NCBI GenBank assembly: GCA_034428955.1
Contig: DAOUGZ010000024.1
Location: 5,804-69,803, forward strand
Length of the DNA stretch: 64,000 nt
Reading direction: 5' to 3'
Origin: Anaerolineae bacterium
Lineage (GTDB): Bacteria; Chloroflexota; Anaerolineae; SpSt-313
Within the stretch, counting starts at the first letter, position 1, and every line of letters begins with the position of its first letter. Below, in pieces: positions 1,527-35,709 of the stretch. A program made the position numbers and the translations under genes. The notes below the pieces were generated by a model that did no database searches, was not told the DNA's origin, and saw nothing but the letters and a program-made list of their open reading frames with translations.

Positions 1527-2042
1527 ATGGATGTTGCTCATAGAGGCAAAAAGCCGGTGAGAGGAGGTTGGGGCTTGAAGGTTGCTGCGGGCGTGCTTGC
1601 TGTTCTGGCCATCGTCATGGCTGTGGTGCCCTCGGTCGCCAACTGCTCGCAGGCGGGCGAGGGGGTGACTCTGGCCAACGGTCGGCGTGCGCCGGCCCCA
1701 TGCCACGGAACGGCGCAGGCCGAGGTGGCGGTGGCGGCGCTGCTCATGGCCGTGGCGGGCCTCCTCGCCTGTAGTTGGCGCCAGGAGACGCGGCTGGCGC
1801 TGGCCGGGTTGGGGTCCATTCTGGGGGCGCTGGCTATCCTGCTGCCGGTGATTCTGATCGGCACGTGTCCTTCATCCGCGGCGCTCTGCAATCGCCTCAT
1901 GCGCCCTGCGCTGATTGCGTCCGGTGCGGGCACAATCCTCACAAGCGTGCTGGTATTTGCCCTGGCCGCCAGGCGTTCCGAGTATGCACAGCGGCCACGG
2001 AACGCCCGCGGGCGCGTACGCTACCTGCGCCGCAACGGCTAG
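1527..2042 (+). CDS. Small 4-TM membrane protein with four conserved Cys (DUF4418-like); tandem paralog 1.
   Basis: Hydrophobic helices. Conserved motifs NC..TLA(N/D)G.R.P..C..TAQAE and LIG.C..S.A.C shared with the next ORF. Start uncertain (ATG 1527, or TTG 1575 after GAGAGGAGG). Confidence 0.6.
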   Translation: MDVAHRGKKPVRGGWGLKVAAGVLAVLAIVMAVVPSVANCSQAGEGVTLANGRRAPAPCHGTAQAEVAVAALLMAVAGLLACSWRQETRLALAGLGSILGALAILLPVILIGTCPSSAALCNRLMRPALIASGAGTILTSVLVFALAARRSEYAQRPRNARGRVRYLRRNG

Positions 2043-2052
2043 TAGTGCACCG

Positions 2053-2103
2053 CAGAGATTCTGATGGGTGCGACTCGCCCCGTGCGGCGCCATGTTACTC
2101 ATA
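2053..2103 (+). repeat. Dispersed ~50-nt intergenic element, copy 1 (agagattctgatgggtgcgactcgccccgtgcggcgccatgttactcata); second copy at 56416-56468.
   Basis: ~85% identity between the two copies. Both begin 10-12 nt after a TAG stop on the + strand. Confidence 0.7.
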
Positions 2104-2168
2104 GGGTCTTGGCGTTTCCTCATGGTACGGATTTTGCTCAGAGAAGGCACATTGTCAGGAGATGGGCC

Positions 2169-2666
2169 ATGAAACTGAGCGCACTTTTGATCGCGCTGTT
2201 GGCCGTCACTGTGGCTGTGGTTCCATTTGTCTTCAACTGCCGAGTTGAGGGCAGGATGATGACGCTGGCCGACGGCGGCCGGATGCCGCCCAGGTGCTAC
2301 TGGACGGCCCAGGCCGAGCTGACGCTGGCTGTGCCGTTGCTGGCGCTGGCCGGGATGCTGGCCTTCAGCCGGCGCAAGGAGGCCCGCCGAGCACTGCTGG
2401 TGCTGGGGGCCATACTGGGCGTCTTGGTCATTCTGCTGCCGGCGCGGCTTATCGGCGTGTGCGCAGATTCGGGCGCATCCTGCAAGCTGATCATGGAACC
2501 GGCGATAATCCTGGCCGGCAGCCTGTTGGCCGGTATCAGCTTGGCCAGCCTGCTGCTTTCCGAGCGCCGGTCCGAGTACGGCGATGAGCCGGTGCGCAGG
2601 CGCCCGCTACACGCAGCGGCCCGGCAGCGTGCCGGCGCTTCTATCGAGACTGGAGATGCGCATTAG
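2169..2666 (+). CDS. Small 4-TM, 4-Cys membrane protein (DUF4418-like); tandem paralog 2.
   Basis: ORF 2064..2666. ATG at 2169 after AGGAGA. Shares TM topology and Cys motifs with 1527..2042. Confidence 0.6.
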   Translation: MKLSALLIALLAVTVAVVPFVFNCRVEGRMMTLADGGRMPPRCYWTAQAELTLAVPLLALAGMLAFSRRKEARRALLVLGAILGVLVILLPARLIGVCADSGASCKLIMEPAIILAGSLLAGISLASLLLSERRSEYGDEPVRRRPLHAAARQRAGASIETGDAH

Positions 2667-2680
2667 AGAGGAGCGGCGGC

Positions 2681-3883
2681 ATGTGCCTCCTCCGCCTGGT
2701 GCGGTATAGCCCTGTGGGCAAGGGACTTGGGGGATGGGCAGCCTTTCTCTCGGCTGCCGTGGTGGCGGCGCTTTCGCTATTGACGGCGCTGATCCTGCAC
2801 GGCGCCGGCGCCTCGCTGGACCTGACTCTCACTCGGCTGGGAGCAGACATCGTCGTCGTCGGCCGGGGGGCCGAAGGTCACCTGGAGAGTTCCCTGGTCT
2901 TGGGTGCGCCGCTGCGGGTGTGGCTGCCGCAGGCGCACCTAGAGCGCATCGCGGCCATTCCTGAGGTGGCTGCCGTCTCGCCCCAGCTCTACCTTTCTGC
3001 GCTCCCTGAGCCCTCCGGCCGTGTCGCCCGGGAGGTCTTCCTCGTCGCCTGCGACCCGGCGACCGATCTATCGCTGCGGCCCTGGCTCGCAGAGGACCTT
3101 GTGGGCCGGCTGCGGCCGAAAGAGGCCGTCGGCGGCAGCAACGTCTCGGTACCCGCGGGCAAGGAGGGCATCAGGTTGTATGGTTCCCTGATTGCCCTAC
3201 GCGCCAACCTGCCGCCGACGGGTACCAACCTGGACCACACCCTCTTCTTCAGCTTTCAGACGGCCTACGATATCGCCGCCAACTCGTACCGGCTGGCCGA
3301 GCAGCCGCTGGTGATCCCGCCGAACAGCATCTCGGCGGCGCTGGTAAAGGTGCGTCCGGAGGCTGACCCGCACCAAGTCGCGTTGGAGATCCGCCGCAGC
3401 GTCCCCGGGGTCACACCCATCGAGCGTGCAGACCTCTTGCCGACGTTCCGAGGGCGAATCGCGGACCTGCGGCGGCGCATGAGGGCTACCTCTTACCCCA
3501 CGCTCGCACTCTTGCCGCCTCTTTTGGGCCTGATCCTGACGTTGACGGCCCAGGAACGGTGGCCCAAGGTCGCCGGCCTGCGCGCACTGGGTGCGACCGG
3601 CCATGATGTACTACGCTGTTTGCTGGCCGAGGCGGCGCTATTGGCCCTGCAGGGCGCGATGCTGGGCACGGCTCTGGCCGTGTTGGCGACGCGCCTTCTC
3701 CGCGAGCGCATCGCCGCCGCGCTCAAGATACCGCTCCTCTTCCCCCCTCTGCCCTCATTGCTGGCGTCGGTGGCCGGGGGCGCGGCTTTGGCATTGGCAG
3801 CGGTCGTGGCGGCTGCCTTGCTCCCGGCTTGGCGGCTCAGCCGGCAGGCGACGAGGCCGGCGACCCAGGGTAGGCCGCAATGA
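2681..3883 (+). CDS. FtsX-like ABC-transporter permease (MacB/LolC-type single FtsX domain). No cognate ATPase gene adjacent.
   Basis: N-terminal TM, large extracytoplasmic domain (..LGADIVVVGRG..), C-terminal 3-TM FtsX domain. RBS GAGGAG before ATG 2681. Confidence 0.7.
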   Translation: MCLLRLVRYSPVGKGLGGWAAFLSAAVVAALSLLTALILHGAGASLDLTLTRLGADIVVVGRGAEGHLESSLVLGAPLRVWLPQAHLERIAAIPEVAAVSPQLYLSALPEPSGRVAREVFLVACDPATDLSLRPWLAEDLVGRLRPKEAVGGSNVSVPAGKEGIRLYGSLIALRANLPPTGTNLDHTLFFSFQTAYDIAANSYRLAEQPLVIPPNSISAALVKVRPEADPHQVALEIRRSVPGVTPIERADLLPTFRGRIADLRRRMRATSYPTLALLPPLLGLILTLTAQERWPKVAGLRALGATGHDVLRCLLAEAALLALQGAMLGTALAVLATRLLRERIAAALKIPLLFPPLPSLLASVAGGAALALAAVVAAALLPAWRLSRQATRPATQGRPQ

Positions 3884-3973: not shown

Positions 3974-5044
3974 TCACGGAGTCTCTCCACCGCCCAAAGA
4001 CCTCACGCGGCGCAGAAAGAAAAAGCCGATGGCCAGCGGCAGCCATACGTTCAGCCCGCGGAAGGCGACGGTTATGGCCACCGCACTCGTCGTGGTGACG
4101 CCGAGCGAGGCGAGCACCAGCGCCATAGCGCCTTCGGCCACGCCGATGCCATGGGGGATGATCGTCACGATCGAAAAGACGATATTCAGCATATAGCCGG
4201 CGATCAGAGTTCCCGGGCGCAGCGGCCAGCCATAGGCCAGGGAGAGGGCATAGAGGCTGGCCAGGTTGACGAGGCATGCCGCCATGGCTACGCCCAGGGT
4301 GCTTCCCAGAAGGCGTGGCGCCTCGCTCAGACCCTTGGCTGCCCTGACGTAATCATCCGCCTGCTGCTCCGCCCAGGTCTCCGCCAGCGGCACCGGGCGG
4401 CCGAGTTGCCCCGCCAGCCCATTGACGATGTGCTGCAGGGCGCGGAAGAGGGCGTGAAGCCGGCCGGGCAACCAGCGCCCCAGCAAGATCATCCCGGCCA
4501 GAGAGCCGGTGAAGAGGAGCAGGATGGTGGAGGCGACGATCTGATAGGGCTCCAGGGCTTGCCGGTAGGCGAGGTGATGCAGGCCATAGGCTACCAGCGG
4601 CAGGATGGCCGTCAGGTCGGCGACCAGGACGAGCAAGGCACCCTGAGCGGCGCGCACGGCCGACTGGCCGCGGCGGGCCGCATCGTCGACAACGACTGCC
4701 AGCGCGCTGACGCCCCCAGACGGTACGATGGCTTTCAGGAACAGGGAAGCAAAGAGCACCGGCACAAGGTCGCGCACACGGCTTTCAACGCCGACGCTGG
4801 CCAAGCCGAGCCGATATTCGGCAGCGTACACCAGGTAGAAGGCGCCCTGTAGCAGCGCGGCCGCCAGTATCCATGGCCAACGGCCGCGCCCCAGCGTGCT
4901 GAGGACTCGCACTACCTCTTGTTGGCGCACAGCAACGAGGGCTGCAAAGCCCGTGAGGATTAGGACCAGCAGCCAACGGCGGCGTAGATGGGTGAGCAGG
5001 CGGTGGTGGTGCATCGATGGATCGGATGGGTCTTGGATCGACAC
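3974..5044 (-). CDS. UPF0104/LPG-synthase-TM (flippase-like) family integral membrane protein.
   Basis: ~8 predicted TM helices. Family-typical length and hydrophobic pattern. Divergent from rph. Confidence 0.65.
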   Translation of the reverse strand: MSIQDPSDPSMHHHRLLTHLRRRWLLVLILTGFAALVAVRQQEVVRVLSTLGRGRWPWILAAALLQGAFYLVYAAEYRLGLASVGVESRVRDLVPVLFASLFLKAIVPSGGVSALAVVVDDAARRGQSAVRAAQGALLVLVADLTAILPLVAYGLHHLAYRQALEPYQIVASTILLLFTGSLAGMILLGRWLPGRLHALFRALQHIVNGLAGQLGRPVPLAETWAEQQADDYVRAAKGLSEAPRLLGSTLGVAMAACLVNLASLYALSLAYGWPLRPGTLIAGYMLNIVFSIVTIIPHGIGVAEGAMALVLASLGVTTTSAVAITVAFRGLNVWLPLAIGFFFLRRVRSLGGGETP

Positions 5045-5303
5045 GGAATCTCGTGGCTCCTCACAGTGGCTTGGGGTACCTGATGGCCGGTAGGGTTGGC
5101 GGCATGATGCAGGCTGCTGCGATCCAGGCGGCCGGCCGCTTGCCCGCTTGCTTACTGTTTAACCCCCAATATACCCCCGCGATGTGTAGCAAACTATGGG
5201 CCTGCGTGGCATGCGATTCGCTGAGTCGCTCGCGACGCATGAACAGGAAGCGCCTGCATGCCGCCCCCAGCCGGATGCGGAATGCGGCCGAGGAAGGAAT
5301 GGG

Positions 5304-6026
5304 ATGAGCCGGGCGAGAAGCGACGGACGTGCCCACGATGAGATGCGCCCCGTGGAGATGGTTCTTGACTATCAAGCTTTTGCTGAGGGATCGGCGCTGG
5401 TCAGCGTGGGTGGAACGCGTGTGCTGTGCGCGGTGACGGTCCAGGATGGCATCCCCCCCTGGGTTGTCGGTGCCCCGGGGCAGGGCTGGATTTCGGCCGA
5501 GTACGCCATGCTGCCCCGTTCGACCCGCACCCGGACTTCCCGCGACGGGTCGGCGCGTGAAACCGAGATCTCGCAACTGATCGGGCGTGCGCTGCGCGCC
5601 TCCGTCAATCTACACGCGCTTGGCGAGCGCACGTTTATCGTGGATTGCGATGTGATCCAGGCCGACGGAGGCACTCGCTCAGCGGCCATCACCGGGGGGT
5701 ATGTGGCCCTGGTGCAGGCCGTGCGGCGCCTGATGCGCGAGGGCCGCATACAAGACTCGGTGTGGCGCCCGCCCGTGGCCGGAGTCAGCGTTGCTCTGTG
5801 GCGCGGCGAGGTGGTCCTCGACCCCTGCCATGAGGAGGATATCGAGGCCAATGTGGATTGCGACGTGGCGCTGAACGCCGAGGGGCGGCTCGTAGAGCTG
5901 CATGCGCCCGCTTCCGACCCCTATACGCAGGAGCAACTGGAGGCGATGCTGGCGATGGCCAGGCCCGCAACGCAGCAGTTGATCGAGATGGAGATGCGGC
6001 TGCTGGGCTGGGAGAGGTGGGGTTAG
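5304..6026 (+). CDS. rph: Ribonuclease PH.
   Basis: ATG 5304 after GAGGAAGGA. 240 aa. Signature CDVIQADGGTRSAAITGG and overall RNase PH similarity. Confidence 0.9.
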   Translation: MSRARSDGRAHDEMRPVEMVLDYQAFAEGSALVSVGGTRVLCAVTVQDGIPPWVVGAPGQGWISAEYAMLPRSTRTRTSRDGSARETEISQLIGRALRASVNLHALGERTFIVDCDVIQADGGTRSAAITGGYVALVQAVRRLMREGRIQDSVWRPPVAGVSVALWRGEVVLDPCHEEDIEANVDCDVALNAEGRLVELHAPASDPYTQEQLEAMLAMARPATQQLIEMEMRLLGWERWG

Positions 6027-6472
6027 GGCTCGGCGATCAGCTCCTGCGGCGCCCAGGCCATGGCCTGGGTGTGTAGCCAGGCCAGTTGCCGGTCTGTCTC
6101 CGCCCCCAGGTTGGCACAGACCGATTCCAGTGTCGAGTCGCACAGGACCCGCGCCGCCTGGCCGAGCACGACCCAGCGCAGGTGCACGCTCTGGGCCAGG
6201 AGCCACGCATTCTGTAGGTCTTCCAGCAGGGGGTGCGTCTCTGCGGCAGGGGCCAGCACGGGCAGGCAACTGGCGAGCGCCGCCTCGGCGTTTAGCGGGC
6301 GCCCCGTGAGCTTGCTCAGAACGCGAATGTGCTCTTCGGACCAGGCAGCGAGCCGGGTACCGGTAAAGCCGATATCGAGTTCATCGCTGTGGCGCTCACC
6401 CAGGGCGATCAGCGCGTCTGCCAGTTGCCTCTCGGCAATCAGGAGGAGATCCACATATTCCCATACGCGCAT
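6023..6472 (-). CDS. Hypothetical 149-aa protein encoded immediately downstream of (and overlapping) the molybdoenzyme gene; possible dedicated chaperone/accessory protein.
   Basis: Strong RBS GGGGAGGA 5 nt before ATG 6472. 77-nt overlap with the 3' end of the upstream gene in another frame. Codon usage matches the genome. Confidence 0.45.
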   Translation of the reverse strand: MRVWEYVDLLLIAERQLADALIALGERHSDELDIGFTGTRLAAWSEEHIRVLSKLTGRPLNAEAALASCLPVLAPAAETHPLLEDLQNAWLLAQSVHLRWVVLGQAARVLCDSTLESVCANLGAETDRQLAWLHTQAMAWAPQELIAEP

Positions 6473-8885
6473 ACCTGTCCTCCCCGGCGGTTGGCGCCTT
6501 TCCGATGCGCAGGCGGAAGCGCCTCAGCAGCGAGCGCAATCGCTCACCCAGCGAGGGCTGGGGGATGCCGCAAATGCGCACGGCGGTGTACTTGAGCAGC
6601 GGCTGTTTGCTGACCGGATCCCACTGGCCCAAGGTGAGTTCGTTGGCGGCGCGGATGCGCGAGGGTCCATCCCAGTAGCCGTAGTGAAAGGGCATAAAGA
6701 CCACTCCGGGTGCGATCCTGCCGATTTCCGCCCGTGCCAGGGCCAGCCCCCGGCGCGAACGGACCTCGACCATCTGGCCCGCGACGATGCCCTGGCGGCG
6801 GGCGTCCTCCTCTGAAATCTGCACAAAAGAGTCCGGCGCGGCGTCGTTCAGCACAGGGACGCGCCCCGTCTTGGTGCGCGTCAGCCACTGGTAGACGACC
6901 CGTCCTGTCGTCAGCCAGAGGGGATACTCCTCGTCGGGTGCCTCCGGCAGGGGCGCGCCATCGATGGGCTTGAGCAGCGCTCTGCCCTGCGGGTCTTCTG
7001 CGCTGTAGGCAGAGCGGCCGATCTCGGCGCCGGTCAGCAGATCGTGCCCATAGGTCTGACAATAGTCGGCGCTGGTGTTGAACCGCCCCCCCTCGTACAG
7101 CCGTGGCCGGCCCTCGGGATACTGCTCGTTGCAGGGCCACCGGATGCCCGGGCCGCCGCTGAGCCGGGCATAGCTGAGCCCGCTATAGTCGCAGGGGCGC
7201 CCCCTGGTGCAGGCCTTCCAGGCCTCAAAGGCTCCCTCGGGGTCACTCCATTTGATCAACGGCGCGCCGTCACGGTCGCGCAGGTCCATGAGCCGGGCAT
7301 AGTCGAGAAAGATGTCCAGGTCCGGCCTCGCTTCGCCGGGCGGGCTGGCCGCCGTGTAGGAGATGTGCACCGTCCGGTCGGCAGCGGTGAACGTGCCCGT
7401 CTTTTCGCCCCAGATGGCCGCCGGCAGCACGACATCGGCCAACTGCGCCGTCTCCGTCATGAACGCATCCTGGACGACGAGGAATAGCCCGGCGGAGCGC
7501 AGCGCATTGCGCACGCGCAGCAGGTCCGGCAGCGATACCGCCGGGTTGCTGCCGGTGACCCAGAGCATGCGTATCGAGCCCTCTTCGATGTAGCGCAGTA
7601 TGCGCATGATGTGCGTTGGCGGCCCCCAGCAGGGGATGCGCGAGGGCTCGACGTTCCAGAGGCGCGCCAGTTCGGCCATGTGCTCAGGATTGGCCCAGTT
7701 GCGAAAGGCCGGAAAGGTGCCCGCGCAGCCGGTCTCGTGGACGTTGTGGCTGGCGGGCTGCCCGCTCATGTGCAGGATGCCGCATCCCGGCCGCCCGATC
7801 AGGCCGCGCATGAGGTGCAGGTTGTTGATCTGGACTGCCGTCGCCGTGGCCTGCGCGGACTGGTACACGCCCAACAGTACCGTGGAGACGAGGCTGGGCG
7901 TCGTTCCGAGGATCTGGGCCGCTCCACGTATGTCGTCGACCGGCACGCCCGTTACCGCCTCCACGCGCGCGGGTGACCACTCTCTGACCGATTTCTTTAG
8001 GCGCGCATACCCCAGGGTGTGGGCATCGATATAGGCGCGGTCGACCCAGCCGGATTGGATAATGATGTTGATGAGTCCGCAAAGCAGGGCGGCGTCGGTC
8101 CCCGGGCGCGGGGCCAGGTGGACGTCGGCGGCCTGCGCCGTAGGGGTTTTGCGCGGGTCGATGACGACCAGCCGGGGTGGCCGGGGGCCGGCGCGACGGT
8201 CCAGGATGCGCATCCAGAGCACAGTGTGTTGCTCGGCGACGTTGTGCCCGACGTGCAGGATGGCCTCTGCTGTGTCCAGGTCGCTGAATGAGCCGGGCTG
8301 GCCGTCTGTGCCGAACGACTCCATCAAGGCGGCCGAAGCGCTGGCGGTCGATAGCCGGGTGCTGGCGTCCATGTGCGGGGTACCCAGGCCGGCCTTGCCG
8401 ATAACGGCCAGGGTATAGTACTCTTCCAGAAAGAGCTGGCCACCGGTGTAAAAGGCGATGGCTAGGCTGGTATGATCGGCGCGAATCTGCGCCGAATGCT
8501 CGGCCACCAGGCCCAGCGCCTCCTCCCAACTGACCTCGCTCAGCCGCCCGTTCCGGCGGACTAGAGGGTGGGTGAGCCGGTCGCTACTGGCGTTGGCCAG
8601 CCAGCCGTAGAGCCCTTTGGGGCCGAGCCGGCCGCGATTGGTGCCGTCTGCGCTGCGCCCGCGCACGCCGACCATGCGCCCATCTCGCACGCCAATGTCC
8701 AGCCCGCAACCGTTGGAGCAGAGAACACAGGCCGATTGTACCCAGAACTCGGCCTCAGCCAGTACTCGCTCATCCAAGCGTGTTGGCCAGTCGCCCTCGC
8801 CATAGTAGGGCGTGCGGTACCCCCATATGGACGCAATAGCATCGCGCGACTGGTACTCCTCTGTCTCTCGCCTGCCGAGCATCAT
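6396..8885 (-). CDS. Molybdopterin (Mo-bisPGD) oxidoreductase, nitrate-reductase/formate-dehydrogenase superfamily, cytoplasmic (no Tat signal).
   Basis: 829 aa. N-terminal C-x2-C-x3-C Fe-S motif (SACVLCSNGCG) followed by GRLGPKG where canonical enzymes have GRLC.KG. MopB-type domains and a C-terminal molybdopterin-binding region. Confidence 0.85.
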   Translation of the reverse strand: MMLGRRETEEYQSRDAIASIWGYRTPYYGEGDWPTRLDERVLAEAEFWVQSACVLCSNGCGLDIGVRDGRMVGVRGRSADGTNRGRLGPKGLYGWLANASSDRLTHPLVRRNGRLSEVSWEEALGLVAEHSAQIRADHTSLAIAFYTGGQLFLEEYYTLAVIGKAGLGTPHMDASTRLSTASASAALMESFGTDGQPGSFSDLDTAEAILHVGHNVAEQHTVLWMRILDRRAGPRPPRLVVIDPRKTPTAQAADVHLAPRPGTDAALLCGLINIIIQSGWVDRAYIDAHTLGYARLKKSVREWSPARVEAVTGVPVDDIRGAAQILGTTPSLVSTVLLGVYQSAQATATAVQINNLHLMRGLIGRPGCGILHMSGQPASHNVHETGCAGTFPAFRNWANPEHMAELARLWNVEPSRIPCWGPPTHIMRILRYIEEGSIRMLWVTGSNPAVSLPDLLRVRNALRSAGLFLVVQDAFMTETAQLADVVLPAAIWGEKTGTFTAADRTVHISYTAASPPGEARPDLDIFLDYARLMDLRDRDGAPLIKWSDPEGAFEAWKACTRGRPCDYSGLSYARLSGGPGIRWPCNEQYPEGRPRLYEGGRFNTSADYCQTYGHDLLTGAEIGRSAYSAEDPQGRALLKPIDGAPLPEAPDEEYPLWLTTGRVVYQWLTRTKTGRVPVLNDAAPDSFVQISEEDARRQGIVAGQMVEVRSRRGLALARAEIGRIAPGVVFMPFHYGYWDGPSRIRAANELTLGQWDPVSKQPLLKYTAVRICGIPQPSLGERLRSLLRRFRLRIGKAPTAGEDRYARMGICGSPPDCREATGRRADRPG

Positions 8886-9129
8886 CCCACCTCAGTAGAA
8901 CAGGAGCAAGGTGTGTGCCAGGCTTGTCTGTTACTTCGCTGGCATACACCTTGCTACCGTGGTCGGGAGCCTGGGCGGCCCACCGTGGCCTCGCCAGAGG
9001 GGGTGGCGACCGAAGTGGCCGATCGCATAGATGCTGGTTGCCTGCGTTCCGGTTCCCGCCGGGTAACGCGGGCCATGAGAATCTCTGCGGGCCACTATGA
9101 GGGCCGATCACTCCGTACCGCATATAGGT

Positions 9130-10149
9130 ATGAAGAGAAAAAGCGCGCAACCAAGCCAACGCCACGCCCCATGCGCGTCGCGCCGGTGGCCGGCCACGAC
9201 GGATGGCGCCGGTGACCCGCCTCTGAAGGCAGGCGGGCGCGGCTGTGATGGAGCGGACAACCTGCAGCTTGTCTTCAATGCTGATGACCTGGGCCGGACG
9301 GCGGGCATCAATGTGGCCGTCATGCGCGCCCACGAGGAAGGCATACTGACCAGCGCCAGCCTGATGGTGACCGGTAGCGCCTTTGACGATGCTGTGCGGC
9401 GCGCCCGGGAGCATCCCAGTCTGGCCGTCGGCCTGCATCTGACCCTGGCCGGGGCCGCTGGTGCGTTAGCGCCGCGCCAGGCGCCGCGCTTGCTGGATGG
9501 GCAGGGGCGCCTGCCGCAGAATCCGGCCCTGGCGGGTGTCGCCTACTTTCTCAACCGGGCCGTGCGTTCCGAGTTGCGCAGTGAAATCGCCGCCCAGTTC
9601 GAGCGCTTTGCCGAGACGGGGCTCGATCCCTCCCACCTTGATGGGCACTTTCTCATGCATCTCCACCCTACCATCCTCAGCATGGCCGTGCCGCTGGCTG
9701 AGGAGTATGGGTTTCGCGGCATCCGGTTCCCACGCGACGATCTGCGCCTGATCTTGGGCCTGGACCGCAGCCGGGCAATGGTCAAGGCGGGCTGGGCGGG
9801 GGTCTATGCGCTCCTGTGCCGGCTCGCCGAGCAGCGCCTGAAGCAGAGTTCTGTCGTGTATACCGACCGTGTCTACGGGTTGTTGCAGACGGGGCACATG
9901 CATGAGCAGTTCGTGGCCGGCCTCCTGCGGCGCATCCCAGCCTGGGTTGGGTCAGCCGAAATCTACTTCCATCCCAGTATAGAGGACTCTGGCGAACCGT
10001 ACGGACCAAACCCGGGCGACCTGAAAGCGCTCCTGAGCAACCATGTTCGACAGGCCGTTACAGAACGGAGGGCCAAATTGACCAATTACGCGGCCCTGGC
10101 AGTCAACGGCCATAGGAGGATGGCGTGCCCTGGTCTCTCTTCCTCTTGA
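9130..10149 (+). CDS. hpnK: YdjC-family carbohydrate deacetylase, HpnK-like (hopanoid-biosynthesis-associated).
   Basis: LQLVFNADDLG.. YdjC signature; adjacent and translationally coupled to an HpnI-like glycosyltransferase. Start uncertain (ATG 9130 or 9097; no canonical start near the conserved core). Confidence 0.6.
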   Translation: MKRKSAQPSQRHAPCASRRWPATTDGAGDPPLKAGGRGCDGADNLQLVFNADDLGRTAGINVAVMRAHEEGILTSASLMVTGSAFDDAVRRAREHPSLAVGLHLTLAGAAGALAPRQAPRLLDGQGRLPQNPALAGVAYFLNRAVRSELRSEIAAQFERFAETGLDPSHLDGHFLMHLHPTILSMAVPLAEEYGFRGIRFPRDDLRLILGLDRSRAMVKAGWAGVYALLCRLAEQRLKQSSVVYTDRVYGLLQTGHMHEQFVAGLLRRIPAWVGSAEIYFHPSIEDSGEPYGPNPGDLKALLSNHVRQAVTERRAKLTNYAALAVNGHRRMACPGLSSS

Positions 10150-11288
10150 GCCTTACTGCGGCGAGCTGGATCTATTGGCTTGTGGCGGGTTGGTGCGCGA
10201 CCGAGTTCTTTTCCGAGCCGCAGCCTCAGGCCGATGAGGACCTCCCTCCGGTTTCCATACTGAAGCCGGTGCGTGGCCTCGATGCTGACGCCTACAAGAG
10301 CTTTAGCAGCTTTTTGACGCAGGACTATCCGGCGGACTATGAAGTCCTCTTTGGAGTTTCGGACCCGCTGGACCCGGTTCTGGACCTGGTTACCCGCTTG
10401 CAGTACGAGTTTCCCAAGCGGCAGATACGCGCCTTTGTGGCCCCGCAGCGCGGCGCCAACGACAAGGTCAGCATCCTCTGCCACCTGGCCCAGCAGGCGC
10501 AGTACGATACCTTTGTCATCTGCGATAGCGACATGCGCGTCACGCCCGACTATTTGCGGCGGGTCTGCGCCCCCCTGCGTGACCCCAACGTGGGGCTGGT
10601 GACGACCCTGTACCGGGGAGAACAGGCGGAGACGCTGGCGGCGCGCTTGGAGGCTCAGTTCATGGGGGTGACCTTTCTGCCCTCGGCGCTGGTGGGCCGG
10701 CGTTACCTGAATATGCGCTTTGCCCTTGGGGCGACAAATGTCCTGCGTCGCGAAACGCTGCGCGACATCGGCGGCTTTGAGACCATCCTCAACTACCTGG
10801 CCGACGACTATCAGCTCGGCGCGCGTGTCGCCGATACCGGCCAGCGGGTGCACCTCTCCGACTATACGGCCCAGAGCATCCTCGGCGCCACGACCTTTCG
10901 CGAGCAGTGGGGGCGCGAGGTGCGTTGGGCCAAGTGCTTGCGCGTCAGCCGCCCTATGGAGTACCCGGGCATCCTCTTTATGCTCTGCACACCACTCTCT
11001 GTGGCGACGGCGGCCACGATGGGCTTTTCACCCGTCGGGCTGGGAATCGTGGGCGCTTCGCTGACCCTGCGCTGGCTCGTTTCCTGGCATGTAGCCCGCT
11101 ACGTCCGCGACCGGCTGTTCTTCCGCTACTGGTACTGGCTGCCCCTGCGCGATTTCCTCACGGCGGCCATCTGGTTGGCCGGCGGAGTCGGCGGCCACGT
11201 CTCCTGGCGCGGGCGGCGCTTTGCCCTGCGTGAGGGCGGGCGCCTGCAGCCCCTGCAGCCGATGGTGCCCCAAGAGCCGAGCCCCTGA
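10125..11288 (+). CDS. hpnI: GT2/GT21 membrane glycosyltransferase, HpnI-like (ceramide-glucosyltransferase-like).
   Basis: GTG 10125 after AGGAGGA. Overlaps hpnK by 25 nt. DxD-type motif region (ICDSDM) and C-terminal TM helices. Confidence 0.7.
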   Translation: MPWSLFLLSLTAASWIYWLVAGWCATEFFSEPQPQADEDLPPVSILKPVRGLDADAYKSFSSFLTQDYPADYEVLFGVSDPLDPVLDLVTRLQYEFPKRQIRAFVAPQRGANDKVSILCHLAQQAQYDTFVICDSDMRVTPDYLRRVCAPLRDPNVGLVTTLYRGEQAETLAARLEAQFMGVTFLPSALVGRRYLNMRFALGATNVLRRETLRDIGGFETILNYLADDYQLGARVADTGQRVHLSDYTAQSILGATTFREQWGREVRWAKCLRVSRPMEYPGILFMLCTPLSVATAATMGFSPVGLGIVGASLTLRWLVSWHVARYVRDRLFFRYWYWLPLRDFLTAAIWLAGGVGGHVSWRGRRFALREGGRLQPLQPMVPQEPSP

Positions 11289-32862: not shown

Positions 32863-35709
32863 CTATTCCTGGCTCCCCATCCTCAGCACCTGGAACAGCC
32901 GCGACTGCACGGCCTCTCGGATTAGCCCGTTCTGGGCGATGAGCTGCACCAGGGCAAAGACGGCGGCCATGGCGATGATGCTCTGCCGGTCCAACAGGAG
33001 CTGCAGGGGCGGCAGCGGCAGCGAGCCGTCGGGTGTGGAGACGCGAAAGTAGGGGATGAACAGACGCGAGGCTTCGACGCCGATGGCGACCCCCGCCAGA
33101 ATCCCCACAGCGAGCACGATCAGGTACTCGAGCTGCACCTGAAAGGCCAACTGCCGGCGGCTGATGCCCATGGCCCGCAGGGTGGCAAAGCGGAAGAGGC
33201 GCTCGCGCATCGACTTGTGATACTGGATCAAGAGCCCAACGCCGGATAGGGCCAGCGAGGCCAAAAAGCCGACGGTCAGCGTCCCATAGATGCCAATCCG
33301 CTCCTTCTTTTCCATCTCTTCTGTGACCAGCGTGTACACATTCTTGTAGGTCACGTCGCTTTTCATGACGCGCGCGAGCGCACCCGCCAGTTCCTCCGGC
33401 TCCGTCTGCGACCAGTCGGCCTTGAGCCAGATGTCGTAGGTGCTCACTCCACCGGTCGTGTCGATGAGATAATCCATACTGCCGACGAGCGCCGCAACTT
33501 CCTCTTCGTAGACGGTCGGGAAATAGTCGTACACGCCGACGATGGTCACAGGCACCTCAAAGCGGTTAGTCCCATCAGGGCTCACGCGGATCTTGATCGA
33601 GTCCCCGACCTGGCGCGCGGAGGCGGCCAGGAACTGGCGCGATACGAGGACGCCGTCGGGGTGCAGCGCCAGGCGGTTCATCAGCGCGCCCAGCGATTCG
33701 TCGCCAAAGTCGGGCCGGAAGGCGGCCACAGAGGTAATCTGAACCCGGTCCACCGCCAGGTAGCGGGCACTGAGGGTTGTCCTGTCGTCCACCGGCACAT
33801 CGGCGCGATAGCTGCCGACGGCGGTGCCGCCCGTGATGCCCGGGATAGCCAGGAGCTGGTCCCAGGGGATCGACCAAGCGGCCGCATTCGCCGGCTCTCC
33901 GGCCGCGGCAAGCCCACTGCTCGGGTCGATGCCGGCGGCCTCGACACTCATCGCCGGAAAGACAATGTCGCTCCCGAGCCGGTAGTACATGCGGTCCACG
34001 AGCCATTGGTCCAGGCTGGCAGCCATCGAGGCCATGAAGACCCCGACGCTCAGCGAGGCCATAATCAGGAGCAGCGAGTTCATGTACTGTCGGCCCTGAC
34101 GGCCCAACTGGCGCAGGGTCAGGCAGCCCACCAGAGGCAGGTGGCCGGAGAGCAATCGGTCCAGCAGGCGCATCAAGCCGGGGAAGAGCTGGGCTGAGAT
34201 CAGCGAGGCAGCCAGCATAGAGAGCACCGGCACCAGAAAGACCAGCGGATCTCGGAAGACGTCGCCAGAGGACTCGTAACCCAGGACGGCGATTGTGCCC
34301 TGCTGCTTGAGCTGATAATAGGCATAGGCTGTGGGGACGATCAAGAGGACGTCAAAATAGAGCCAGATCCACAGCGAGCCCTCATACTGCCGGCTGGCCG
34401 CTCGGGCATAGTCGATGATGCTCCAACGCGCCTGGCGGATGACCGGCCACAGGCGCGCCAGGAGCGCCACGGCCAGGGTCAGCAGGATAAGCCAGGGGTT
34501 GACGCCGGCCAGCGTAACGTCGAGCGGGCTGCGGGGCACAAAGCGCAAAAAGCTGCTCGCATGTCCCATCAGGCGCGCGACCCCTAGGCCGGTAAGCACC
34601 CCCAGCGGGGCGCCAAACAGGATCAGAATGATGCCCTCCCAAAAGCTGGCCTGCACAACCTGGCTGGAGCCCATGCCGCGGCTGACCATGGTCGCTGTGA
34701 CCTGCCGCTGGCCCTCAACAACGATGCCGGCCACCAGGGTCAGAAAGTAGAGCAAAAAGCCAACGATCGGCACGCTAAAGCTAAAGAGCAGGAGGGTCAG
34801 CGGGCGGCGCCGGCCCAGAAACGCTTCCAGGGTAGCCAGCGGCGAGACGTCGCAGCGCACATCGGGCAGCCATTGGCGGATCTGCACATCGGCGCGCTGA
34901 AAGCCCTTCACATAGCGGTCCGCATACTCGGGTACAAAGCCCCTCTCGTCGAGGTTGATCGCCCAAGAGACAGACCCCACCGGCGTGTTCCCCAGATGAG
35001 GCTCGATCCGCGCCTGATAGTCCTCCGGCTGGACGAGCAGGACCATGCGCAGATTGCCGTTGGGATCCGAGGGCCAATAGGGGTCCTCCGGGTCCTTGGG
35101 CAGCCAAGTGCCGGCAATGCGCGCCTTGATCGGCTGGCGGCCCAGGATCGGCTGGACGACGAACTCTTCGCCGGCGACGATGCCCATCTCCATCGCCCAG
35201 GACTCGTGCAGCCAGACGTTCAGCGCCTCGCCGGAGGACGGGGTGTCGATCGGGTCGCCGCTGACGATCTCCATATGCTCCTGAATATGGGTGACAAAGC
35301 CCGCCTTGGTGTTCCCCAGAAGCGTGCCTGCGGCGCCGTAGGGGCTATCCTCGGCGGTCTTGAGCATCAGCCCGACGGACTCGACCGTCACCTCGGACCG
35401 TTCCACAGGGATGCCCAGGTTGGTCTCGTAGGCCGAGGCGATGCTGGCCGCCATGTCCAGGCATTGCTGGGATGAGATGGGCGTCCGCGAGGAGGGGAGA
35501 TAGTACACGCGCAGCGCCAGAGGGGGGCGCCCGACCCGCTCCGACAGCTCCTGCAGCTCGTCCTCCATAATCGCCCGGCTGACGGCCTGGGCAAAAATGG
35601 GGATGCTCACCGCTAGACCCACCGCTAGAGCAATACCGATTACTGATAGCACCGCCAGCCAGGGCTGGCCCCGCAACCGTTTCCAAGCAATCCACAGCAT
35701 ACCAATCAT
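32863..35709 (-). CDS. Large ABC-transporter permease with two FtsX domains (10-TM, MacB/YtrF-like, ~948 aa).
   Basis: Two FtsX-like 3-4-TM blocks each following a large extracytoplasmic domain. RBS GGAG 7 nt before ATG 35709. Confidence 0.8.
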   Translation of the reverse strand: MIGMLWIAWKRLRGQPWLAVLSVIGIALAVGLAVSIPIFAQAVSRAIMEDELQELSERVGRPPLALRVYYLPSSRTPISSQQCLDMAASIASAYETNLGIPVERSEVTVESVGLMLKTAEDSPYGAAGTLLGNTKAGFVTHIQEHMEIVSGDPIDTPSSGEALNVWLHESWAMEMGIVAGEEFVVQPILGRQPIKARIAGTWLPKDPEDPYWPSDPNGNLRMVLLVQPEDYQARIEPHLGNTPVGSVSWAINLDERGFVPEYADRYVKGFQRADVQIRQWLPDVRCDVSPLATLEAFLGRRRPLTLLLFSFSVPIVGFLLYFLTLVAGIVVEGQRQVTATMVSRGMGSSQVVQASFWEGIILILFGAPLGVLTGLGVARLMGHASSFLRFVPRSPLDVTLAGVNPWLILLTLAVALLARLWPVIRQARWSIIDYARAASRQYEGSLWIWLYFDVLLIVPTAYAYYQLKQQGTIAVLGYESSGDVFRDPLVFLVPVLSMLAASLISAQLFPGLMRLLDRLLSGHLPLVGCLTLRQLGRQGRQYMNSLLLIMASLSVGVFMASMAASLDQWLVDRMYYRLGSDIVFPAMSVEAAGIDPSSGLAAAGEPANAAAWSIPWDQLLAIPGITGGTAVGSYRADVPVDDRTTLSARYLAVDRVQITSVAAFRPDFGDESLGALMNRLALHPDGVLVSRQFLAASARQVGDSIKIRVSPDGTNRFEVPVTIVGVYDYFPTVYEEEVAALVGSMDYLIDTTGGVSTYDIWLKADWSQTEPEELAGALARVMKSDVTYKNVYTLVTEEMEKKERIGIYGTLTVGFLASLALSGVGLLIQYHKSMRERLFRFATLRAMGISRRQLAFQVQLEYLIVLAVGILAGVAIGVEASRLFIPYFRVSTPDGSLPLPPLQLLLDRQSIIAMAAVFALVQLIAQNGLIREAVQSRLFQVLRMGSQE

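Follow-up and report, generated by a model that had tools for sequence, protein, structure and literature searches.

A widespread, so far unnamed MopB branch with a three-cysteine cluster motif and a ferritin-like partner protein, and its serine-type subclade beside hopanoid genes in an Anaerolineae bacterium

MopB enzymes drive much of the redox cycling of nitrogen, sulfur, arsenic, selenium and chlorine, and new catalytic clades in this superfamily are rare and have repeatedly revealed new metabolisms. The described systems that bear on the present case are the monomeric NapA of D. desulfuricans (PDB 2NAP/2JIM), the assimilatory nitrate reductases NasA/NasC/NarB and the formate dehydrogenases (Fdh), all of which carry Cys at the fourth position of the N-terminal iron-sulfur (Fe-S) cluster motif. 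AioA and IdrA are the only MopB catalytic subunits known with a three-Cys N-terminal [3Fe-4S] cluster, according to a 2023 survey (PMC10100899). Here we describe a MopB gene and its partner gene in a 64,000-nucleotide (nt) stretch of an Anaerolineae bacterium (GenBank assembly GCA_034428955.1, contig DAOUGZ010000024.1, positions 5,804 to 69,803), referred to below as the window. The two overlapping genes appear to encode a cytoplasmic two-subunit molybdoenzyme of an unnamed MopB branch, the nearest characterised relatives being NapA, NasA/NarB and FdhF. We give a slightly better than even chance to our favoured reading as a whole, in which the product is a two-subunit, three-Cys molybdoenzyme and the window copy is a neofunctionalised form with Ser instead of Cys at the molybdenum (Mo) ligand position (Ser-type; all other members are called Cys-type or mainstream).

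The MopB gene lies on the reverse strand at 6396..8885, and its open reading frame (ORF) translates to 829 amino acids (aa). Three Pfam domains were found above their gathering cutoffs: Molybdop_Fe4S4 (PF04879) at aa 48-95 with 43 bits, Molybdopterin (PF00384) with 185 bits and Molydop_binding (PF01568) with 100 bits. The protein has the Molybdopterin domain and the C-terminal dinucleotide-binding domain of the MopB/DMSO reductase superfamily, whose members carry a Mo/W-bis(pyranopterin guanine dinucleotide) cofactor (Mo/W-bisPGD), and its best solved relative is NapA 2jim (phmmer, E 3e-112, ~35% identity, full-length alignment). Both results agree with an earlier note on this DNA, made from the letters alone, which had called the product a Mo-bisPGD oxidoreductase. 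Two consecutive ATGs stand at the start of the gene (8879-8905), and the spacing of a GAGGTGG Shine-Dalgarno sequence favours the second, at 8882, which is probably the real start and gives 828 aa, the same as the NCBI call (P0001). The C-terminal tail (6396-6472) is Arg-rich and poorly conserved and overlaps the start of the partner gene.

Every named NCBIfam family scored the window protein below its curated cutoff. The best was Fdh-alpha (TIGR01591), with 478 bits against a cutoff of 666, followed by NasC (411 against 1100), NasA of the halophilic type (375 against 1000), NapA (338 against 904) and arsenite_ox_L, the AioA family (151 against 359). Apart from its score, the protein departs from Fdh-alpha (FdhF/FdhA) in having Ser-Thr where that family has Sec/Cys-His at the ligand position, and Ser374 at the position equivalent to the catalytic FdhH Arg333, which is Asn in Cys-type members. 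NapA is alike in domain order, in the C-x2-C-x3-C spacing and in the G-x-L-[C]-x-K-G context, and the mainstream members of the family also share its Mo-ligand Cys and its Arg354. Unlike NapA, the window protein lacks a twin-arginine translocation (Tat) signal and is predicted to be cytoplasmic, and it has Gly for the fourth cluster Cys, a family-specific leader of 40 aa, the extra invariant cysteines Cys559 and Cys565, and an obligate ferritin-like partner instead of NapB/NapD. The window copy further has Ser in place of NapA Cys140 and His in place of Arg354.

Our counts of homologs rest on the 120 best homologs of the window MopB protein, and genome loci were drawn from a scan of one genome per species. 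The Fe-S motif C53-x2-C56-x3-C60 (SAC53VLC56SNGC60G; 8706..8729, reverse strand) is present in all 120 homologs and aligns with Cys13, Cys16 and Cys20 of NapA. In the following segment, G85RLG88PKG91, Gly88 stands 27 residues past C60 and falls exactly under the fourth cluster Cys (LLCLKG) of D. desulfuricans NapA in the phmmer alignment. Its codon (GGC; 8622..8624, reverse strand) is a single base change from TGC. The exact sequence GRLGPKG was found in 118 of the 120 homologs (62-72% identity) and in 80 of the 80 genome loci with a readable motif, and because of this conservation Gly88 must be regarded as a family trait, neither chance nor error. The Cys-to-Gly replacement had already been noticed by the earlier note, which reckoned with a sequencing error as one of two findings that would overturn it; the same conservation rules such an error out.

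At this site, three Cys with Gly at the fourth position most simply suggest a [3Fe-4S] cluster by analogy with AioA and IdrA, a reasonable comparison that the earlier note had already made for arsenite oxidase, and we tentatively prefer this cluster at a little under an even chance. A [4Fe-4S] cluster with Cys559/Cys565 as its fourth ligand is possible and somewhat less probable, a [4Fe-4S] cluster that has an Fe site left open or bound by something other than Cys is unlikely, and some other cluster type is improbable. The alternative that survives best can be put more broadly: the cluster would be a normal [4Fe-4S] cluster with no special redox property, its fourth ligand relocated to Cys559/Cys565 or to a residue (Asp, Glu or His) that the leader or the partner contributes, and we consider this a possibility of well below even chance. 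It draws on the family-specific pair Cys559...Cys565 (CTRGRPC; 7191..7211, reverse strand), which supplies candidate replacement ligands; another Cys at the ligand position is what the earlier note had given as its second ground for refutation. C559 is found in 120 of the 120 homologs, where NapA has Val527, and C565 in 119, where NapA has Tyr533; neither Cys occurs in NapA or FdhF, and their presence goes together with loss of the canonical Cys. The homologous NapA segment (residues ~517-561) is said, in work by Dias and co-workers from 1999, to lie in the cluster-binding domain I. However, C559 and C565 could equally make a separate Cys4 site (Zn or Fe-S) with C585 (116/120 homologs) and C609 (113/120), both encoded within 7059-7133. 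Moreover, nothing else in the motif around G88 has changed, and Gly leaves a cavity, as three-Cys sites do. The four residues (aa 559-609) follow the pattern C-x5-C-x19-C-x23-C, of which NapA has the last two only, and they could form an additional metal site.

The family is encoded in at least 587 species genomes. It was found in Cyanobacteria, Bacteroidota, Nitrospira, Brocadiaceae (anammox), Thermithiobacillus, Deinococcus, Actinomycetota, Acidobacteriota, Chloroflexota and Verrucomicrobiota and in the archaeon Methanobacterium. We regard it as a large, widespread and so far unnamed MopB branch. As its hallmarks we propose a cluster site with three canonical Cys (C-x2-C-x3-C-x27-G), a conserved acidic leader of ~40 aa and an obligate ferritin-fold partner of ~150 aa; the window copy has GRLGPKG, the leader, C559/C565 and the partner, which in the family is encoded downstream or fused. 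Our literature search found no description of a GRLGPKG-type family, of a ferritin-like MopB subunit, of a fusion of the partner with HPP, or of a molybdoenzyme in hpn clusters. Several homologs are named 'ferredoxin-nitrate reductase' in JGI annotation. The mycobacterial proteins MSMEG_6816 and MSMEG_2237, possible further members, are uncharacterised MopB proteins that are dispensable for nitrate assimilation (PMC7816997).

The N-terminal leader (aa 1-52; 8730..8885, reverse strand) is family-specific. It comprises 52 residues ahead of the first Cys, ~41 of which are family-conserved and ~10 specific to the clade of the window protein, and its family consensus is RDSIADIWGxRTPY..WPxRVDER..WVQSAC, with RDSIxxIWGxRTPY..WPxRxDER..WVQSAC conserved in the 120 homologs. 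With a net charge of -4, hydropathy values (Kyte-Doolittle) of no more than 0.68, hence no hydrophobic stretch, and no S/T-R-R-x-F-L motif, the acidic leader is not a Tat signal, as the earlier note had stated; the ~55 aa given there are to be shortened to 52. On the strength of these features the window MopB protein is predicted to be cytoplasmic. In an AlphaFold2 (AF2) model of a naturally fused family member, P0023, the first ~19 leader residues had a predicted local distance difference test score (pLDDT) below 50.

The partner gene (6023..6472, reverse strand) encodes 149 aa, overlaps the MopB gene by 77 nt in the +1 frame and is translationally coupled to it, with the Shine-Dalgarno sequence GGGGAGGA 5 nt upstream of its ATG, so that the overlapping gene and strong ribosome-binding site described earlier were both found again. 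Overlaps of 50-77 nt between the MopB tail and the partner start, always with the partner in the +1 frame, are present in the window and in five further loci (L081, L082, L086, L087 and L089). A frameshift-made MopB-partner fusion product is conceivable, given the in-frame fusions in other lineages. The partner matches the C-terminal ~150 residues of family members of ~950 aa (E 4e-28), and a search with a hidden Markov model (HMM) of the partner located it in ~74 of 81 loci, either fused to the enzyme or encoded right after it in the same orientation. At 90% identity the partner family falls into 2,565 clusters, at 50% identity into 1,293.

No sequence relatives of the partner were found in Pfam, NCBIfam or the PDB, where the search gave designed helical repeats only. 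The protein is all-helical, with a ferritin-like four-helix bundle. It differs from the ferritin-like superfamily (Dps-like PA4880, thioferritin, mini-bacterioferritin, YciE/DUF892-type) in showing no detectable sequence homology to it, in being tied to a MopB enzyme and in having a conserved set of its own (Y6, E14, H28, W44, D85, Q105, D112, R128, Q129 and W132). No canonical ferritin ExxH di-iron motif and no di-iron ligand set was found in the partner; its only mid-helix Glu residues are E14 and E95, and E95 is Ser in the window copy. Three further ideas about the partner were tried and given up. A relationship to hemerythrin, prompted by hemerythrin neighbours in the family, received an hhalign probability of 0.1%. 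An Fe-S or Zn centre formed by H28, C38, C99 and C119 looked near-invariant only in an alignment biased to Cyanobacteria and Bacteroidota; in the phylogenetically broad locus set the putative metal-site residues were kept in only 60/75, 35/75 and 46/75 sequences, and the window copy has G38 and R99. The AF2 model of P0023 (pLDDT 78, predicted template modelling score (pTM) 0.71) was uninformative on docking geometry, with the linker and the leader at low confidence.

Fusion of the partner to HPP was found in seven genome loci and in ~18 of the 150 top library representatives, with the partner domain at the N-terminus and the HPP transmembrane domain in the C-terminal half; the transmembrane half was confirmed in 7/7 of the fusion representatives tested. 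The partner comes in three forms: as a separate, coupled protein, as a C-terminal domain of the enzyme, or as an N-terminal cytoplasmic domain of an HPP-type channel. In a Blastocatellia metagenome-assembled genome (MAG; L041, 3634-5460), the partner domain is fused to a metallo-beta-lactamase-fold domain in a protein of 608 aa.

These fusions bear on the proposal, made in the earlier note, that the 149-aa protein could be a dedicated maturation chaperone. Its dedication to the enzyme is borne out by the ~74/81 loci in which it is adjacent or fused, and as a small, all-helical protein encoded beside the enzyme it could be a functional analogue of TorD/NarJ rather than a subunit. The conserved leader could then serve as a chaperone-binding site, as in NarG, where an N-terminal 'remnant signal' is bound by the chaperone. 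Against this, no TorD, NarJ or DmsD family HMM in Pfam or NCBIfam matched the partner, its fold is ferritin-like, and a transient chaperone would not be expected to be fused for good to the C-terminus of the enzyme or to HPP channels. Because it is permanently fused to an enzyme or a membrane channel, the partner is better explained as a subunit or adaptor, and we consider the chaperone reading improbable. As a subunit, the partner would be a structural or electron-transfer adaptor able to dock the enzyme to an anion channel.

In the Cys-type members the Mo-ligand Cys (TRLCTAT) is retained, together with the Arg that corresponds to NapA Arg354 (NTRE) and the sequence YHFH, and the His/Arg pair of Fdh was found in none of them. 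Anion channels are their commonest neighbours, one (HPP, SLAC1 or ClC) lying near ~34 of the 80 loci (~43%). HPP, tallied with a stand-alone HPP profile, was found in 16 of the 80 loci, each time directly after the partner gene and across ~8 phyla; SLAC1/TehA occurs in 14 loci, always within 808 nt of the module, and ClC in 5, within 1.5 kb. Nitrite transport has been described for HPP proteins (Maeda et al. 2014, cited in PMC7438415). Taken together, the anion-channel neighbours, the Mo-ligand Cys and the NapA-type Arg suggest oxyanion (nitrate/nitrite-like) chemistry in the mainstream family. On the simplest reading, the mainstream enzyme would be an oxyanion oxidoreductase of the cytoplasm that docks to an anion channel by way of the ferritin-like domain. 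Its substrate would be a small oxyanion, with nitrate/nitrite metabolism as the most likely setting. Given the enriched anion channels, the earlier statement that the substrate cannot be inferred was too pessimistic for the family as a whole.

Other neighbours of the Cys-type genes recur in particular lineages. Hemerythrin-domain proteins are found repeatedly. In Methanobacterium (L036, 13549-15421; L044, 13522-18339; L075, 13598-18056), a 979-aa fusion of MopB with the ferritin-like domain is followed by HPP and two to four tandem hemerythrin genes, a nitrate-reductase-like module that is unexpected in strict anaerobes. In three Acetobacteraceae MAGs (L065, 1956-3947; L066, 7897-9987; L072, 7631-9985), a protein of 660-780 aa combining a DUF2231 membrane domain, a Rieske [2Fe-2S] domain and hemerythrin is encoded directly upstream of the fused MopB gene and ends right at its start; it is a candidate electron-transfer partner, reminiscent of AioB. 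A Nitrospira MAG (L048, 14103-15650) has a fusion of an FAD-dependent oxidoreductase (DAO) with a Rieske domain downstream of a 1035-aa fused MopB-partner protein. In six loci of Chitinophagaceae and relatives (L013, L014, L018, L029, L033 and L049), a DUF7009 protein of ~140 aa is encoded 79-365 nt upstream of MopB.

The window protein belongs to a rare clade in which the active site has changed. At the Mo-ligand position, occupied by Cys140 in NapA, alignment places Ser179 (8349..8351, reverse strand; RLSTAS against RLCMAS in NapA). This position is Ser in 13/13 members of the clade and Cys in 107/107 of the other sampled homologs and in 80/80 genome loci. The Ser clade, from Anaerolineae-like metagenome-assembled genomes, consists of the window protein and its 12 closest relatives (66-72% identity), all metagenomic and one of them named Anaerolineae, and the 13 sequences branch together as a monophyletic sister group whose branch lengths are normal. 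Of the positions conserved to at least 95% in the Cys-type, ten are changed consistently in 13/13 Ser-type members (G144A, G174A/S, C179S, N374S, T378A, T382A/V, A387C, A426I/V, N501S and H668L/Q/M). The NapA Arg354 equivalent is His in 8 of the 13 (His383 in the window copy), and where the mainstream reads TRLCTAT, NTRE and YHFH the window copy reads TRLSTAS, NVHE and YQWL. Some family-conserved residues have also been lost from the partner protein of the Ser clade. That 13/13 members share the replacements, on branches of normal length, points to selection for a new pocket and not to decay, and judged from the substitutions the changes look like a coordinated re-tooling to a less polar, less cationic pocket.

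Ser ligates Mo in DMSO/TMAO reductases and in pyrogallol transhydroxylase. The Ser clade is like DorA, TorA, BisC and pyrogallol transhydroxylase in its Ser ligand and in a neutral or less anionic substrate pocket; unlike them, it acquired its Ser within a NapA/Fdh-like scaffold. These enzymes are very distant relatives (E 1e-13 to 1e-14), and DorA, TorA and BisC have no Fe-S cluster. One possibility is that the Ser-type proteins are catalytically dead MopB scaffolds with a structural or electron-transfer role, like Nqo3/NuoG, ActB and QrcB. It is true that the Mo ligand is no longer Cys and that the NapA-type Arg and two His of the pocket are gone, and QrcB and NuoG are among the weaker NCBIfam matches. 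The textbook role of Ser as a Mo ligand elsewhere speaks against a dead scaffold, as do the strong scores of both Pfam domains that bind the molybdopterin guanine dinucleotide and the uniformity of the replacements on branches of normal length, and we think it has little chance of being correct.

The gene neighbourhood of the Ser clade is also different. In the window, hpnK (9097-10149) and hpnI (10125-11288) lie on the forward strand (9097..11288), divergent from MopB. Both passed their NCBIfam equivalog cutoffs (HpnK 261.8 bits, cutoff 232.6; HpnI 343.6 bits, cutoff 310), as they also did in L082. A flippase-like LPG_synthase_TM membrane protein (HpnL/AglD-like, Pfam PF03706) is encoded at 3974..5044 on the reverse strand. 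Across nine distinct Ser-type loci, hpnK/hpnI were found divergently upstream in seven and the flippase-like gene near the module in eight; an AI-2E-family permease occurs in seven and a GT4 glycosyltransferase in most, and no anion channels were found in any of the nine. From locus to locus the neighbour proteins share only 42-73% identity, and the genes farther out are not the same, which indicates that the gene block has been kept over considerable divergence. HpnL has been placed in the same AglD/LPG-synthase-like family, and HpnI domains have been reported only in genomes with SHC and HpnH (both preprint 10.1101/2025.07.29.667474). A radical SAM gene in L084 was considered as HpnJ, and this was not supported. 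Ser179, the remodelled pocket and the hpnI/hpnK context of the window copy had all escaped the earlier note.

The window copy shows neither the mainstream active site nor the anion-channel neighbours that go with it, and from this we infer that its function has moved to another, less anionic substrate. The Ser subclade has switched its genomic partners from anion channels to hpnI/hpnK, the flippase-like gene, GT4 and the AI-2E permease, and the window copy would be functional and neofunctionalised, possibly tied to glucosaminyl-hopanoid or membrane-lipid modification. A more specific proposal can be put forward, unlikely as we judge it to be in full: the Ser-type would be a lipid-tailoring molybdoenzyme and, jointly, the mainstream a channel-docked (HPP, SLAC1 or ClC) [3Fe-4S] oxyanion oxidoreductase. 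Under this proposal the re-tooled NapA/Fdh-type scaffold (Cys to Ser, Arg to His, apolar pocket) would carry out an O2-independent hydroxylation, dehydrogenation or reduction of a glucosaminyl-bacteriohopanepolyol or related membrane glycolipid, the substrate being made by the adjacent HpnI, HpnK, GT4 and flippase genes.

Several observations weigh against our favoured reading. An anion channel lies near only ~43% of the Cys-type loci, and nitrate/nitrite assimilation genes were not seen as recurrent neighbours of the Cys-type. With its Cys ligand and Arg gone, the Ser-type could instead have lost catalysis. The invariant C559/C565 may restore a four-Cys [4Fe-4S] cluster, a possibility that weakens the analogy to AioA. 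A redox role of the partner is speculative, as it has no ExxH motifs and its conserved Cys are not universal, and the model of fused P0023 is only moderately confident (pTM 0.71) and silent on docking. Neither shc nor hpnH was found among the ORFs tested in the 64-kb window, and the hpn linkage could be synteny inherited within one lineage with no functional link.

Taken at face value, the JGI names would make the protein a NasA/NarB-type assimilatory nitrate reductase of the ordinary, ferredoxin-dependent kind. NasC (E 1e-123) and NasA (E 1e-112) are indeed the best named HMM matches after Fdh-alpha, and the Nas-type enzymes are likewise cytoplasmic and of similar size. However, the window scores amount to only about a third of the curated cutoffs, and the fourth cluster Cys (G88), the Mo-ligand Cys (S179) and the substrate Arg are all changed, so that a three-Cys site replaces the four-Cys proximal cluster (FS0) and there is no Cys-Met at the Mo ligand. 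The nir/nrt genes are absent from the window and the Ser-clade loci, there is no nirA/nirBD/nrt linkage, and an obligate ferritin-like partner is unknown in Nas/NarB systems, whose partners are of a different type; we therefore regard this assignment as quite improbable. An AioA/IdrA-like enzyme with a high-potential [3Fe-4S] cluster feeding a Rieske protein, which the three-Cys motif and the Rieske-containing neighbours in the three Acetobacteraceae loci and the one Nitrospira locus might recall, is very improbable indeed, as AioA is a distant relative (E 6e-26 against 3e-112 for NapA, and an arsenite_ox_L score below half the cutoff) with Ser at the fourth position after ~70 residues rather than Gly after 27, has no protein Mo ligand where the window family has Ser or Cys, and is exported with a Rieske subunit and without a ferritin-like partner, and since Tat export is lacking here and a Rieske gene is present neither in the window nor in most loci.

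The remaining surroundings of the window copy are less uniform. A convergent RNase PH gene (5196-6026; TIGR01966, 254 bits) lies between the partner and the flippase-like gene and its end overlaps the partner stop codon by 4 nt; an AI-2E permease occupies this place in other Ser-clade loci. Directly after hpnI, the segment 11371-14940 encodes a hybrid histidine kinase/response regulator (762 aa) followed by a convergent 408-aa protein with a C-terminal receiver domain, a position taken in other Ser-clade loci by ERCC3-like helicases. Two tandem DUF4418 proteins and then an FtsX-like permease are encoded at 1527-3883, and a second, large FtsX-domain protein at 32863-35709. No molybdenum cofactor riboswitch, other RNA, promoter or terminator was found around the MopB locus, and the ORFs tested in the window included no moa, moe or mob gene.

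What we describe for the family as such is solid and can be tested; what we say on function is inferred. Present annotations of family members are either generic or, where they read nitrate reductase, wrong. New for the superfamily would be a conserved three-Cys proximal cluster outside AioA/IdrA, a subunit with a ferritin fold, and the physical fusion of this subunit to channels of the HPP nitrite-transporter type, which together yield a testable hypothesis of channel-coupled oxyanion redox chemistry. If this is true, the mainstream family would be an unrecognised and very widespread player in nitrite/nitrate handling, even in methanogens. The Ser-type subclade is a natural experiment in active-site re-tooling. 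It may link molybdenum enzymology with hopanoid or membrane-lipid modification, which matters for the interpretation of lipid biomarkers, and if that link holds the Ser-type protein would be the first enzyme with molybdenum to act in the side-chain chemistry of hopanoids or membrane lipids.

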